Shown here: positions 14,030 to 21,238 of the stretch, piece after piece
Layout of the letters: the number at the start of each line of letters is the position of its first letter
How positions within the stretch are numbered: position 1 is the first letter of the stretch
From: a phage
Length of the DNA: 64,000 nucleotides
Reading direction: 5' to 3' (one strand)
NCBI GenBank assembly: GCA_018175075.1
Contig: GCA_018175075.1_4100.1
Made by a program: the position numbers and the translations under genes
The notes under the pieces: generated by a model
What the model saw: the letters and a program-made list of their open reading frames with translations, nothing else
Databases searched by the model: none
What the model was told of the DNA's origin: nothing

Positions 14030-14368
14030 ATGGAACAATATTTTGAATTAATAAACAAAGTATCATTTTATGTAGTATCTTTGGTTTGGGTGTATTATAT
14101 GTTTTGCTATATTATTGCATTCTTCCGATATACTACTTTATATGAACGTATCTACTATGATGCCCCAATTTCATTCTTGATGTTTTGTGCATGTACGTGG
14201 GGAATATTAGAAGTACTGATATGTGGGTATAGTACTGATGAATTAAATCTGGTATCGGTGTTGACTGGGTTTTCATTTGTTGTTATGATAGCTGCCGTTC
14301 CAGTATGGTTGTTCTTTGGACTAGTTCATCGCATTGATATATGGCGTTCTAATATCCCTGAAAAGTAA
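14030..14368 (+). CDS. small multi-TM membrane protein (paralog family M)
   Basis: hydrophobic; C-terminal RSNIPEK tail. Confidence 0.55.
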   Translation: MEQYFELINKVSFYVVSLVWVYYMFCYIIAFFRYTTLYERIYYDAPISFLMFCACTWGILEVLICGYSTDELNLVSVLTGFSFVVMIAAVPVWLFFGLVHRIDIWRSNIPEK

Positions 14369-14377
14369 GGATTGGAA

Positions 14378-14719
14378 ATGATTTATTACACTAACATGTT
14401 TGCCTATGCTGTTGCTTGCATTTACATTGTTTACTTCTTATTCGGTGGAGTACTGTGCTTCTTTAAGTACAAAACGTTGTTCAACCGAATGTACCCAAAT
14501 CATCCAATTGTAGTTGTACTTTTGATTCTTTCAGTTTCTCAAATAATCGTTGAAACTACAATGGGTATCAGTAGTGTACATTATAGTTTTGGCACTATAG
14601 TAATTATTACTATGCTTATTGCATACATTTTAGTACTTGGATATGGTATCTTTGGTAATATTGGTATGAAAATGTATCATCGAATTAAAACATTACGTGA
14701 TAATCTACCGGAGCGTTGA
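14378..14719 (+). CDS. small multi-TM membrane protein (family M)
   Basis: ATG 14378 with AAGGA RBS (track used TTG 14372); tail RDNLPER. Confidence 0.55.
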   Translation: MIYYTNMFAYAVACIYIVYFLFGGVLCFFKYKTLFNRMYPNHPIVVVLLILSVSQIIVETTMGISSVHYSFGTIVIITMLIAYILVLGYGIFGNIGMKMYHRIKTLRDNLPER

Positions 14720-14720
14720 T

Positions 14721-15065
14721 ATGTATAATTTGAACCTAATCTCATATATTATAACAACACTGTTTACATTCTATGCCTTTGTTGGTATAATCCTACTGTA
14801 CTTTAAATTTTATAAAGTGTTTAACCGTTTCTATCCTTCAATGGAGAATGAGTTTTTCTTTGTGTTGTACGTAGGTTACACATTAATGGCTACATGTTTC
14901 ACTGTAGCCGATGGTGTCATCGGCATTAAAACTGATTCCCCAAATGGTAGTACGCTGGTTGCATTTATTCTTACTGGATTCCTTGCAACTTATATTGCCT
15001 TCATTACAACATGGTCAGTGGTTGAATTTCTCTTGCGACTACGAAAGAATATGCCGAATCGATAG
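14721..15065 (+). CDS. small multi-TM membrane protein (family M)
   Basis: ATG 14721 after upstream stop; tail RKNMPNR. Confidence 0.55.
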   Translation: MYNLNLISYIITTLFTFYAFVGIILLYFKFYKVFNRFYPSMENEFFFVLYVGYTLMATCFTVADGVIGIKTDSPNGSTLVAFILTGFLATYIAFITTWSVVEFLLRLRKNMPNR

Positions 15066-15074
15066 GAGACATAT

Positions 15075-15329
15075 ATGTTTGCGTTGCGTAATAAAAACAC
15101 TAAAGAATTATTATGTATTGATACCGTATGGGATTGTGCGGGATCAACTACAGTTCTTGAAGAAGGAACTGGATATTGCGTGTTTGTTGTTCATGATAGG
15201 AATGAACTCGAATTATTACTTGCTGAGTTCAATGCTGGTGGTAATCCTAACAGTACTGAATACCCTGAGATTATCAATCCAGCACCACCAGGCTCTTATG
15301 AAATTCTACAACTGTGGGAGTTGAAGTAA
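15075..15329 (+). CDS. hypothetical protein
   Basis: 84 aa, AGGAG RBS. Confidence 0.55.
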   Translation: MFALRNKNTKELLCIDTVWDCAGSTTVLEEGTGYCVFVVHDRNELELLLAEFNAGGNPNSTEYPEIINPAPPGSYEILQLWELK

Positions 15330-15709
15330 TGCGTCAAATGCACAAAGTAACCGAGCTAAACAAGCGTCTGGTTAAACAATCAATGTTCGAGGATAAAGAG
15401 TCTTATTATAACTTTAAACGTGCTGTAGAGGCTGCTATCCACATTCAGAAGCTTAAAGAACGTGGTTGTATTATTCTGGAAAATGGGTCGGAAGTTGTAA
15501 CGGATGACTTTAGTGTAGCGTTTGATGTTTCACCTGACGGGACGCTATCAATGCCCCGCTTAGGAACTGGAAACATGACTGTTTGGGTTGGCTTCACTAT
15601 GGGGAATGTACCTGGTACTGTGTACGTAGATGATGCGGAATTGAAAGACAGTTTCAAAAACTTATCTTATCTTGAACCACAATACGCACATGAAATGAAT
15701 TTATTTTGA
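15329..15709 (+). CDS. hypothetical protein
   Basis: ATG 15329 overlapping upstream TAA; GGGAG RBS. Confidence 0.55.
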   Translation: MRQMHKVTELNKRLVKQSMFEDKESYYNFKRAVEAAIHIQKLKERGCIILENGSEVVTDDFSVAFDVSPDGTLSMPRLGTGNMTVWVGFTMGNVPGTVYVDDAELKDSFKNLSYLEPQYAHEMNLF

Positions 15710-15710
15710 G

Positions 15711-18798: not shown

Positions 18799-19137
18799 AT
18801 GCTTGAGTTTTTTAATTCAGATACAATGATTAGTATTACTTTGATTTATCTGTTTGGTTTTTTCTTTTATCATGCACTGGTTGTAGTACTGTGGTATTTT
18901 AAAAAGAAAATTGTTTTTAAACTGTATCCAGTAAGGAATTCATCACTAGTTCTTTACACACTAGTTCAAGGTTTGTTTGCAATTGTTGGTCTTATGGCAC
19001 ACTTAATTTATTGTGCCAATCCTCACTTGAACTCAATCTCACAATATATTGTATTCTTTGGGTTGTTCATTTGGTTAGTTGTATACTTAATCCATCTCAT
19101 TATTCATGGTAGAGATAAAATTCGCGGAGACTTCTAA
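18799..19137 (+). CDS. small multi-TM membrane protein (family M)
   Basis: 112 aa, hydrophobic, basic tail. Confidence 0.55.
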   Translation: MLEFFNSDTMISITLIYLFGFFFYHALVVVLWYFKKKIVFKLYPVRNSSLVLYTLVQGLFAIVGLMAHLIYCANPHLNSISQYIVFFGLFIWLVVYLIHLIIHGRDKIRGDF

Positions 19138-19484
19138 TGTTTGAAGCTTATCTTGAGTTTTTAAGGAGTAGTTCAGTTGCACATTCACTTGCAGGGATTA
19201 TTCTAACAACTTATGTATCATTTTGGGTAGTTATGTTTCTAGGATGGTATTTTAAACGACAATTCTATAAACGTAATGGTGAAGATTTTATGAATTCTGC
19301 CATTAATCAATCGTTGTTTGCATCAACATTGATTGCATGTATTGTAGCAACACTCACAGGAAAGGTACTACCAGCTTTTTCCGCAGTTTACGGCACACTT
19401 GGGATGATATGTTTAACTTTTATATTGACCATTAAAATTTGTTGTGTTATGATTGAACTTCGAAATAAGATACCGGAGGAATGA
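19137..19484 (+). CDS. small multi-TM membrane protein (family M)
   Basis: tail LRNKIPEE; start overlaps upstream stop. Confidence 0.55.
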   Translation: MFEAYLEFLRSSSVAHSLAGIILTTYVSFWVVMFLGWYFKRQFYKRNGEDFMNSAINQSLFASTLIACIVATLTGKVLPAFSAVYGTLGMICLTFILTIKICCVMIELRNKIPEE

Positions 19485-19819
19485 TGGAGTACTTTATTGA
19501 TTTACTGCCGTGGTATATGAAAGTTAGTACCATGTACTATATTATTAGTGCTGGATTCTACTTTCTGATGTGGTTCTTTAAACGACCAATTTCAGTATTC
19601 ATCGCTGATAACATGCTGCAATTAAAATTACACGCATGGTTTGGTATGGCGATGATTATGCCTATTATTCACTACTCAATGATTAGTAGAGGTTTCCGTT
19701 CTAATGGTGAACCAATTGTATTAGTATTCTATTGGGGTTCAACTATTGCATATGTAAGTTTGTTGTTGTTCCCAGTCGTTCATAAGTTACGTGCTAAAGT
19801 TCCTGATGCGAGGTACTAA
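19481..19819 (+). CDS. small multi-TM membrane protein (family M)
   Basis: tail LRAKVPDARY; ATGA overlap. Confidence 0.55.
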   Translation: MMEYFIDLLPWYMKVSTMYYIISAGFYFLMWFFKRPISVFIADNMLQLKLHAWFGMAMIMPIIHYSMISRGFRSNGEPIVLVFYWGSTIAYVSLLLFPVVHKLRAKVPDARY

Positions 19820-20133
19820 TGGATATAGTAACATTGATTTACACGTTGTATTCATTCTATTTCATTATGTGTTGGGTTGGATTTTTATTTGTACTCAAGA
19901 TGTTTGATTATGTTGAAAAACAGATAAAAGAATTTTGTATTCCTTTTATCGGTTCAACCATTATTAGTGTTTCTTGTGTGTATTTTTTGGTTTTTGATCC
20001 ACCAGATAACACTGCAATGATTGACTTGATGTTACTACCAACAACTGTTACTTTTTTATGTAGTCTGATGCCGCCGATTAGCCGTGGACTAACAGAATTT
20101 AGACGCAATCAAAAGCGTAAACGAGGGATGTAA
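19819..20133 (+). CDS. small multi-TM membrane protein (family M)
   Basis: 104 aa, hydrophobic, basic tail. Confidence 0.55.
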   Translation: MDIVTLIYTLYSFYFIMCWVGFLFVLKMFDYVEKQIKEFCIPFIGSTIISVSCVYFLVFDPPDNTAMIDLMLLPTTVTFLCSLMPPISRGLTEFRRNQKRKRGM

Positions 20134-20501
20134 TGGAAATTGCTCTTATTATCTTAACTGCTATGCTGTTTATTAGTACTGTGGTTATAATTGGTAAATT
20201 CTTTTGTGTATCATTTTTAGAAACGGTATACGATGAAATTGCTGATGATTATGAATTACAAGCCGGATTTTTCATTACGTATTGGCTTAGTTTATTTTGT
20301 CTAGTCATTGCTTGGATTTTACATATCTTTAAATGGGGTATGGTAGACGGTGATCCTATTATGGCAATTATTGTTCTAGTGTTTGGTATCCTTGGTGGTG
20401 CAGTGCATAATCTAATGGTTATCTGGCAAACTGTTCAATATGTTTTGGTTCCCTATTTCGAAAAGATGCACAGTACAATTAAAAAACGTAAACGAGGTTA
20501 G
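20133..20501 (+). CDS. small multi-TM membrane protein (family M)
   Basis: 122 aa, hydrophobic, tail KKRKRG. Confidence 0.55.
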   Translation: MEIALIILTAMLFISTVVIIGKFFCVSFLETVYDEIADDYELQAGFFITYWLSLFCLVIAWILHIFKWGMVDGDPIMAIIVLVFGILGGAVHNLMVIWQTVQYVLVPYFEKMHSTIKKRKRG

Positions 20502-20512
20502 TATGAACGGGA

Positions 20513-20865
20513 TAGAATTATCTTTTGTTGGTCAATTACTAGTAATGGCGTATACATTTATCTTCTCACTGAATGCATTCGTGTGCATTGGGAAGTACTT
20601 CCATAAGCGACCATTATCAAATATATATGATGTAATCCAAAAGAGATATAGTCCAGCATATACTGTGTTGGGTACAGTATTCAATTTTGGTTTTATTGTA
20701 TTAATAATTGGACTGTTCACATCCTCTTTGAATACAATAACCTTCGGTCTTATGATATGTTCATTGGTATTAGCCGTAATTATATGTTGTTTAGTACTGC
20801 ACCTTGTGGTACTATTGTATATAAAGATCTCTGAAATCCACCAACGTTTGGGTATGAGGAAATAA
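20513..20865 (+). CDS. small multi-TM membrane protein (family M)
   Basis: ATG 20513 with GAGG RBS (track start 20440 overlaps upstream gene). Confidence 0.5.
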
Positions 20866-20866
20866 T

Positions 20867-21238
20867 ATGAGTTACCGTGAGATATTTTCCATTATTTCAA
20901 TTATTATGTTCAGTACTGGAACACTGGTATGGTTATTATACTTCTTCTGTATTAATCCAGTGTATAATATGTTATGTAATATTAAATCAAGTGCCGGATA
21001 TATCACTTTTATGGTCTTTATGGGATATTATTGTCTAAGCATTTTAGGTGTTGTTTTGGTTGTTATATTTGATGTGGGACCAAATAGTGATGGTATGGAA
21101 ATACATGAATTAATAACCATGTTTGGATGTATGATACCAACAGCACTACTGTTTGTAGCTACTGGTAGTGGATTGATAAAATTATATAATTATTTAAAAT
21201 CCATTCATAATTCCATTCATAATAAGCGTATGTCATAA
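20867..21238 (+). CDS. small multi-TM membrane protein (family M)
   Basis: 123 aa, hydrophobic. Confidence 0.55.
   Translation: MSYREIFSIISIIMFSTGTLVWLLYFFCINPVYNMLCNIKSSAGYITFMVFMGYYCLSILGVVLVVIFDVGPNSDGMEIHELITMFGCMIPTALLFVATGSGLIKLYNYLKSIHNSIHNKRMS

Follow-up and report, generated by a model that had tools for sequence, protein, structure and literature searches.

Ten Related Small Proteins with Three Predicted Membrane Helices Are Encoded in Two Gene Blocks of a RaK2-Like Jumbo Coliphage

Gene Content of the Two Blocks

The 64,000-nucleotide (nt) stretch of phage DNA analysed here, called the window below (NCBI GenBank assembly GCA_018175075.1, contig GCA_018175075.1_4100.1), carries two tandem blocks of small genes at positions 14030–21238, and the ten proteins that they encode are the subject of this study. 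The region showed 96–97% identity over its length to the Asteriusvirus genomes 121Q, PBECO4, phAPEC6, slurp01, and CRJP21. The window comes from an Asteriusvirus (121Q/PBECO4-like, RaK2-group) jumbo coliphage, and the matched genomes are those of 350-kb RaK2-like jumbo myoviruses of E. coli. An initial annotation, made from the letters of the window, had proposed ten paralogous multi-pass membrane proteins in an early region. Coordinates and translations confirmed ten open reading frames (ORFs) on the + strand, all initiated by ATG and encoding 104–123 amino acids (aa), with three genes in block 1 (m1–m3) and seven in block 2 (m4–m10). They are listed here with the classes and PHROGs families described further on:

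14030–14368, + strand: m1, 112 aa, class A, tail RSNIPEK, phrog_19285
14378–14719, + strand: m2, 113 aa, class A, tail RDNLPER
14721–15065, + strand: m3, 114 aa, class A, tail RKNMPNR
18799–19137, + strand: m4, 112 aa, class A, tail RDKIRGDF, phrog_19454, orthologues in phages A4 and K64-1
19137–19484, + strand: m5, 115 aa, class A, tail LRNKIPEE, phrog_19046 and phrog_16874 ("membrane protein")
19481–19819, + strand: m6, 112 aa, class A, phrog_27396
19819–20133, + strand: m7, 104 aa, intermediate between the classes, tail RRNQKRKRGM, phrog_33258
20133–20501, + strand: m8, 122 aa, class B (IGKFFCV ... H..IKKRKRG)
20503–20865, + strand: m9, 120 aa, class B, start corrected from 20513
20867–21238, + strand: m10, 123 aa, class B, phrog_27618

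The C-terminal tails given in the initial annotation (RSNIPEK, RDNLPER, RKNMPNR, LRNKIPEE, LRAKVPDARY, and KKRKRG) were read correctly. Its gene start at 20513 is out of frame and opens onto 15 stop codons; the true start of m9 is 20503. Stops and starts had been said mostly to overlap. Overlaps of 1–4 nt were found at four junctions (m4/m5, m5/m6, m6/m7, and m7/m8), whereas m2/m3, m8/m9, and m9/m10 are separated by 1 nt and m1/m2 by 9 nt.

Relationship among the Ten Proteins

Pairwise identity among the ten proteins is only about 15–26%. BLASTP and phmmer gave significant matches only within m1–m2–m3 (E 4e-10 to 1e-5), and the remaining pairs were marginal. In PHROGs the proteins are spread over seven best-hit "unknown" families, and m9 falls into none. 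Because pairwise comparison was weak and PHROGs split the set, orthologue profiles were built. The orthologues were taken from 121Q, vB_Ec-M-J, UE-S1, TH47, and A4 (all Asteriusvirus), from K64-1 and RaK2 (Alcyoneusvirus), and from metagenomic contigs (including those designated L009 and L012) and two protein databases.

Comparison of the ten ortholog groups with hhalign gave a connected network. The groups m1, m2, and m3 were joined at probabilities of 91–98% (m1–m2, 97.6%), m5–m6 at 92.6%, and m8–m10 at 83.5%. Weaker links were m4–m5 (69%), m1–m5 (67%), m5–m7 (64.5%), and m8–m9 (63.5%), and m6–m8 formed a bridge at 21.5% (E 1e-3, 102 columns). Reversed-profile controls for all 90 comparisons gave at most 3.3%. 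The pooled family divides by one tail residue into class A, with Arg (n = 81, m1–m7 type), and class B, with His (n = 53, m8–m10 type). When the two classes were re-aligned independently and compared, 108 columns matched colinearly at 97.0% (E 1e-10), with reversed controls at 1.1% and 0.5%.

Iterative searches agreed with these results. Jackhmmer searches seeded with 9 of the 10 members converged on one set of approximately 160 sequences that contains all ten; they recruited only additional array genes, and no non-array or other hydrophobic ORF. A family hidden Markov model (HMM) for the distant genomes was built from the window proteins and close relatives only. It detected 7–9 array genes in each distant genome left out of its building; the 13 loci searched contain 823 ORFs, and only array genes were matched. 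The alignments by hhalign, by jackhmmer, and between classes A and B show that the ten proteins are homologous and form one family. The paralogy first proposed was borne out by profile comparison and iterative search, and pairwise it is evident only for m1–m2–m3. Lack of mutual alignment, together with hydrophobicity too weak for insertion into the membrane, had been named as grounds for dropping the proposal; the profiles do align, and each protein has three hydrophobic helices.

Predicted Membrane Architecture and Conserved Motifs

Three separate Kyte–Doolittle peaks (19-residue windows) were present in each protein. Their means were at least 1.7 for all three peaks in 9 of the 10 proteins; those of m6 were 1.34, 1.38, and 2.0. 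Of the three to four hydrophobic segments described initially, three therefore stand in every protein, but a fourth peak was seen in none (0/10). Summed over the ten window proteins, the charges were +3/−12 at the N-terminus, +27/−16 in loop 1, +4/−8 in loop 2, and +40/−14 in the tail, and all ten have an acidic N-terminus, a basic loop 1, and a basic C-terminal tail. By the positive-inside rule, this distribution predicts an N-out/C-in orientation. The hydrophobicity is sufficient for three membrane helices with a positive-inside charge pattern, and the proteins are probably inserted into the inner membrane as N-out/C-in.

The AlphaFold2 model of m8 had a mean predicted local distance difference test (pLDDT) score of 93.8 and a predicted template modelling (pTM) score of 0.78. 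It is a three-helix bundle with helices at residues 2–21, 27–38, 40–66, and 76–121. In the model, the turn after helix 2–21 bears an invariant Phe and is followed by the short helix 27–38; a short periplasmic turn precedes helix 76–121, which is long and runs on into the basic tail. The model of m5 was similar, with lower confidence (pLDDT 73).

Two motifs characterise the family. The end of helix 1 has the motif [IVL]-[GL]-[WK]-[FY]-F-[KC], in which Phe (column 39) occurs in 141/141 unique sequences. The C-terminal tail has L-x-x-L-[RH]-x-[KN]-[IL], to which class A adds P-[DE]; the tail Arg/His (column 109) occurs in 134/141 unique sequences, or 99% by weight. All ten window proteins align with the invariant Phe and the tail Arg/His, which in m8 are F24 and H113. 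Class A (m1–m6/7) has W[FY]FKR after helix 1 and the tail L-R-x-K-[IL]-P-[DE], and class B (m8–m10) has GK[FY]F-x-V and the tail H-x-x-I-x-KR-x-G. In the orthologues of m6, FYFLMWFFKR and KLRxK[VI]PDxR are invariant. The invariant Phe, common to both classes, would lie at the predicted cytoplasmic end of helix 1. Within ortholog groups, the motif after helix 1 had the highest identity (0.82), ahead of the N-terminus (0.77) and helix 1 (0.74); helix 2, the periplasmic loop 2, and helix 3 had the lowest (0.56–0.58).

Distribution and Synteny

A HMMER search over 1.84 billion representative proteins gave 28 clusters at E ≤ 1e-3, all of 89–127 aa. Word-indexed searches of 5.8 billion proteins gave matches only on phage-sized contigs of approximately 170–385 kb or on short fragments, and a scan of IMG/VR matched only 121Q and RaK2. 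By the match sizes, source names, and contexts checked, no member outside the RaK2-like group was found in the 1.84 or 5.8 billion proteins. Every genomic context examined was that of a RaK2-like phage (Asteriusvirus, Alcyoneusvirus, or uncultured relatives). In a whole 352-kb relative, 11 family matches were found at E ≤ 3e-5, all in the two blocks; no further copy occurs elsewhere in that genome, where the next ORF had E 0.02. At the nucleotide level, a short match to RaK2 and K64-1 lies in the m6 gene. By tblastn, matches of m2 were confined to 33 Asteriusvirus records.

The position of block 2 is constant, 3′ of the following gene and 5′ of convergent RCC1-like genes on the opposite strand:

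17958–18731, + strand: NrdC.10-like P-loop nucleoside triphosphatase (NTPase), approximately 40% identical to T4 NrdC.10, conserved neighbour 5′ of block 2

Block 2 has 7 genes in the window, 8 each in 121Q, UE-S1, K64-1, and RaK2, 7 in A4, 10 in contig L009, and 9 in contig L012. The first array gene of L009 and of L012 lies 1–3 nt from the stop codon of the NTPase. This synteny suggests that the NTPase may belong to the array system. The idea that the two always occur together was rejected: Xanthomonas phage XaC1 and the T-even phage T6 have the NTPase but no array. Block 1 lies 3.7 kb upstream of block 2, after a gp0.7-like kinase gene, and has no adjoining NTPase.

Phage A4 has 1:1 orthologues of m4–m10 in the same gene order as the window, and K64-1 has 1:1 orthologues of m4–m8 and m10 in a slightly rearranged order. 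In distant arrays the class A genes always come first, followed by class B. Block 1 of A4 consists of one gene, compared with three in the window. The initial annotation spoke of an expansion. Since the paralogues have 1:1 orthologues in A4 and in the Klebsiella phage K64-1, most duplications are old, and that term suits only a few recent copies (121Q gp224; K64-1 gp386/387).

Promoters and Expression Timing

Each block is preceded by a site that resembles a consensus sigma70 promoter, and a hairpin follows the last gene:

13681–13709, + strand: sigma70-consensus promoter-like site, TTGACA-17-TATTCT, 5′ of ORF 13746 and block 1, conserved in 121Q and UE-S1
18741–18769, + strand: sigma70-consensus promoter-like site, TTGACA-17-TACTAT, 30 nt 5′ of m4
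21245–21268, no strand assigned: hairpin with a perfect 10-bp stem directly after m10, at the end of block 2

The site at 18741 is conserved in 121Q, vB_Ec-M-J, TH47, and UE-S1. The + strand of the window has 24 matches to the pattern TTGACA-N16-18-TAnnnT and the − strand has none, compared with 1.9 ± 1.35 in shuffled sequence. The T4-type late motif TATAAATA occurs once in the 64 kb, at 8856, and not near the blocks. T4 early promoters are of the sigma70 type, and by this analogy both blocks are probably early transcription units, which would be transcribed early by the unmodified host RNA polymerase. The early setting first proposed agrees with this excess of early-type promoters.

The + strand sites include those at 315, 4279, 15711, 44330, and 51870–60534, and in many of them a perfect TATAAT is combined with a 16-nt spacer. 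No sigma70-consensus site lies in the RCC1-like block of the − strand (about 22–40 kb). On the + strand, the hairpin is preceded by an A-run, which reads as a T-run on the − strand, and is not followed by a T-run. It appears to be oriented like a − strand terminator, and the nearest − strand gene ends at 21924.

Selection, Copy Number, and Disrupted Members

The ratio of nonsynonymous to synonymous substitution rates (dN/dS) of the array genes was 0.03–0.47 against three Asteriusvirus genomes, similar to that of neighbouring genes, which shows purifying selection. Because of these ratios and of the orthologues kept in another genus, the ten ORFs are, on comparative grounds, genuine genes and not chance ORFs. 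The array proteins of A4 are 25–67% identical to those of the window, and the genes at 15786–16808 are 93–99% identical.

Copy number, the comparison of which the initial annotation had proposed, varies from 7 to 11 per genome among the RaK2-like phages compared. Phage 121Q has gained one copy recently, gp224, which matches m4 at E 5e-31. The m7 orthologue is split in the 121Q record (gp228/gp229, positions 15156–15471 of the 121Q locus L001), which reflects either a pseudogene or a sequencing frameshift. In the deposited genomes of the Salmonella phages SD-1_S14 and SD-6_S16, m5 has internal deletions and the NTPase is truncated to its first 95 aa; in SD-6_S16, m9 is disrupted as well (L024 1221–1923; L025 1206–2026 and 3030–3357, SD-1_S14/SD-6_S16 loci). 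Given the purifying selection, the changes of copy number, and the disrupted copies, the members seem to be constrained yet individually dispensable. The genomes of SD-1_S14 and SD-6_S16 are 310–319 kb in size, compared with approximately 350 kb in relatives.

The NTPase allele of the window is 59% identical at the protein level to that of 121Q and 98.4% identical to that of phage WPEC3. Its flanks are 97.7% (13000–17463) and 99.0% (18799–22000) identical to 121Q at the DNA level. This looks like allelic replacement at a recombination hot spot.

Other Features of the Region

One gene directly precedes block 1:

13746–14027, + strand: 93-aa soluble ORF, phrog_37917, ending 2 nt before m1

Its dN/dS was 0.10–0.35, and it is probably co-transcribed with block 1. 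The spacer between the blocks is 3.7 kb in the window (15065–18799) and 6.7 kb in 121Q (L001 7036–13795), where it holds denV (endonuclease V), another endonuclease gene of 1464 nt, and several small ORFs, all missing from the window. Within the window spacer, the soluble ORFs 15075–15329 (84 aa) and 17127–17462 (111 aa) both matched phrog_8563 (E 1e-21 and 6e-24) and form another paralogous pair. ORF 16557–16808 (83 aa) is very hydrophobic and 96–99% conserved in relatives; it was not recruited by the family profile and has no PHROG. ORF 16820–17191 (123 aa) contains DAKPENFG and KLDYGD, which resemble the catalytic loop and DFG motif of protein kinases, although Pfam gave no match to support this likeness.

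Upstream, the small hydrophobic ORFs 4053–4292, 4353–4679, and 5129–5506 alternate with the signal-peptide-like ORFs 4758–5117 and 5509–5859. Further small signal-peptide-like ORFs are located at 11899–12210 and 12554–12973, and the secreted ones look similar to each other. None of the hydrophobic or signal-peptide-like ORFs in 4053–5859, 11899–12210, and 12554–12973 belongs to the three-helix array family.

Two other genes accompany the array in relatives. A conserved 42-aa soluble ORF (MKPEQWIIDDMRAMR...) lies within the array or immediately ahead of it in K64-1 (L004 7766–7894), L009 (4674–4802), and L012 (1533–1661), and is absent from the window and from a complete Asteriusvirus genome. 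A Ser/Gly-rich lipoprotein with the lipobox LTAC or MTGC is encoded directly after the array in K64-1 (gp394, L004 10744–11331) and A4 (A4_235, L005 10803–11354). At this position the window has an unrelated 220-aa ORF (21281–21943, phrog_34359).

Comparison with Known Families

The true homologues of the array proteins are K64-1 gp386–gp393 and their RaK2 orthologues, which share the size, the three-helix architecture, the motifs, and the setting between NTPase and RCC1-like genes. They are annotated only as "membrane protein" or "hypothetical protein". The homologous PHROGs (19285, 19454, 19046, 16874, 27396, 33258, 26405, and 27618) are treated in databases as unrelated "unknown" families. 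What is new here, on the profile evidence, is that several of these PHROGs are joined into one family of two classes.

Single members and an alignment of 29 members were searched against Pfam, PHROGs, and PADLOC, none of which gave a functionally characterised family or a weak match that recurred. The best Pfam E-values were 0.00045–0.006, all under gathering scores and different for each member. The best PADLOC match had E 0.0022 and concerned one member only. A PDB sequence-profile search gave E 0.3, and a BFVD fold search gave a best E of 0.9. No holin model was matched in Pfam (E up to 1) or in PHROGs (E up to 0.01). The second-best BFVD match of the m8 model was A0A1L2CVT3, a 112-aa "putative membrane protein" of Pectobacterium phage CBB, at a non-significant E of 1.5 and a TM-score of 0.51–0.54. 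It may represent a very remote member of the family, from a further genus related to RaK2. Literature searches found nothing that treats these genes and nothing on the function of NrdC.10. In the literature on RaK2, CBB, 121Q, phAPEC6, and fEgEco12 and in comparative jumbo-phage studies, paralogues and putative membrane proteins are mentioned in general terms only.

Two well-studied groups resemble the array proteins in form. T4 Imm is encoded by a single gene; it is a non-essential early protein of approximately 83 aa with two predicted helices that acts in superinfection exclusion at the inner membrane. The array proteins are likewise small, predicted polytopic inner-membrane proteins, apparently non-essential and encoded in the probably early, sigma70-type take-over region of a large virulent myovirus. 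Unlike Imm, they form a set of ten paralogues with three helices each, and they matched none of the immunity or exclusion families in PHROGs or Pfam. Class I holins of the lambda S105 type have approximately 100–120 aa, three transmembrane (TM) helices, an N-out/C-in orientation, and a short basic cytoplasmic tail. The ten family proteins resemble them in length, helix number, predicted orientation, and basic tail, but they match no holin model, lie outside a lysis cassette, have early-type promoters, and occur in ten copies. The genes next to the blocks encode the kinase, the NTPase, and ORFs without known function, and no lysis cassette was seen there.

Another multi-copy set adjoins block 2. 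An array of more than 30 similar genes, not named there, was reported for 121Q (Hua et al., PMC5646251), and we take it to be the RCC1-like array on the opposite strand. Both arrays show how a jumbo-phage genome can grow when a small gene is duplicated in tandem. The RCC1-like products are soluble beta-propeller-like repeats, in contrast to the three-helix membrane proteins, which are far more diverged (15–26% identity).

Possible Functions

The initial annotation had named superinfection exclusion, membrane remodelling, and a channel as candidate functions, and the analysis neither established nor disproved any of them. We estimate the probability that the ten genes encode one family of early inner-membrane proteins at approximately 0.85. 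For a role in exclusion or in blocking host defences, the estimate is 0.35–0.4. In this preferred explanation the proteins would be accessory factors, individually dispensable, for the take-over of the host envelope, with a logic like that of Imm; that such early accessory proteins protect the infected cell at the level of the inner membrane is a tentative proposal to which we give somewhat less than an even chance. The conserved helix 1 and the cytoplasmic juxtamembrane motifs would provide a common activity or contact a common partner, and each paralogue would owe its separate membrane target to helix 2, the periplasmic loop, and helix 3, which are divergent. Jointly, the paralogues might shield the infected cell by excluding the DNA of superinfecting phages, by neutralising membrane-embedded host defence or entry proteins, or both. 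The shielding logic would be that of T4 Imm, without homology to Imm. The T7 gp0.7-like kinase and the many small envelope-targeted ORFs nearby support a take-over setting.

Several points weigh against a shielding role. The paralogues are old, with 1:1 orthologues in conserved order across genera, and no dN/dS above 0.5 was seen among close Asteriusvirus relatives. An arsenal for an arms race explains this 1:1 retention and low dN/dS no better than stable roles without redundancy, or subunits of a complex, would. Conservation is strongest in parts predicted to face the cytoplasm, and a block of DNA entry might rather constrain the periplasmic parts. No annotated superinfection-exclusion, immunity, holin, or defence family was matched in Pfam, PHROGs, or PADLOC, and the fold searches returned generic helical bundles only. 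Errors of assembly could account for the disrupted copies in the SD phages. The early timing was read from consensus promoters, and our literature search found no transcriptome of this phage group.

Part of this evidence would suit the main alternative, in which the paralogues are subunits of a hetero-oligomeric assembly in the inner membrane, such as a channel, pore, or scaffold, possibly served by the NrdC.10-like NTPase. Genes that abut or overlap by 1–4 nt suggest coupled, stoichiometric expression; the orthologues are 1:1 and their order is largely conserved in A4 and K64-1, class A precedes class B in distant arrays, and all members carry the same cytoplasmic motifs. The NTPase also precedes the array in every array-bearing genome and in L009 and L012 stops 1–3 nt from it. 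A fixed assembly is harder to reconcile with 7–11 copies, with the split m7 of 121Q, and with m5, m9, and NTPase genes that are disrupted in the deposited Salmonella-phage genomes. Block 1 has no adjoining NTPase, XaC1 and T-even phages have the NTPase without the array, and an exchanged NTPase allele of 59% identity beside a 99%-identical block 2 argues against tight co-adaptation. On balance we consider such an assembly unlikely. Its more specific form, a machine in which class A and class B protomers are joined through helix 1 and the cytoplasmic motifs and the NTPase powers or gates them, seems distinctly unlikely. The strong conservation on the predicted cytoplasmic face (the motif after TM helix 1 and the C-terminal tail) and the stable retention of the arrays across genera would also be expected of membrane anchors that recruit a phage or host factor for replication, transcription, or prohead assembly. 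Members are, however, dispensable in some isolates, divergence within the genus is high, and no neighbouring gene is annotated for replication or assembly, so that we regard anchors as very unlikely.

A function in lysis timing, as holins or antiholins, can be weighed against the same data. The length of 104–123 aa, the three helices with predicted N-out/C-in orientation, and the short basic tails correspond to class I architecture, and a few weak BFVD matches are annotated as "holin" (E 2.5–5.8). To our knowledge, no holin has been assigned in RaK2-like phages. The endolysin of RaK2-like phages bears an N-terminal TM domain of the signal-arrest-release (SAR) type (PMC5259590). The structural matches are non-significant, though, and the Pfam and PHROGs holin models were not matched. 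Neither an endolysin nor a spanin gene adjoins the blocks; in 121Q the endolysin is gp532 and the array is gp207–232. The promoters are of the sigma70 type with no late motif nearby, and we know of no precedent for ten holins in one genome. Lysis timing is therefore a highly improbable role. Finally, the likeness could be an artefact of hydrophobic composition among unrelated or non-functional ORFs, as the low identities, the mostly non-significant pairwise E-values, and the scatter over seven best-hit PHROGs, with m9 in none, might suggest. The reversed controls stayed at or below 3.3%, compared with 64–98% for real profile pairs; other hydrophobic ORFs at the same loci (e.g., 16557–16808) were never recruited; the invariant Phe and the near-invariant Arg/His stand at equivalent positions; and the genes have cross-genus orthologues under purifying selection. 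Controls, non-recruitment, motifs, selection, and orthology effectively refute this explanation, which we regard as scarcely credible.

Significance

Few phage genes are as poorly understood as those for small early membrane proteins; in the few cases where such proteins have been examined, they control superinfection, lysis timing, and resistance to host defences. If the family serves routine exclusion, the present result would be a useful annotation rather than a discovery. If an NTPase-driven machine were true, it would represent a novel type of viral membrane channel or translocase that is specific to the RaK2-like jumbo phages. The question has relevance for therapy cocktails of broad-host-range coliphages or Klebsiella phages, in which mutual exclusion matters. 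For the RaK2-like phages, approximately ten "hypothetical proteins" per genome become one defined family with two classes, two diagnostic motifs, a predicted topology, a high-confidence structural model, and a fixed genomic address.

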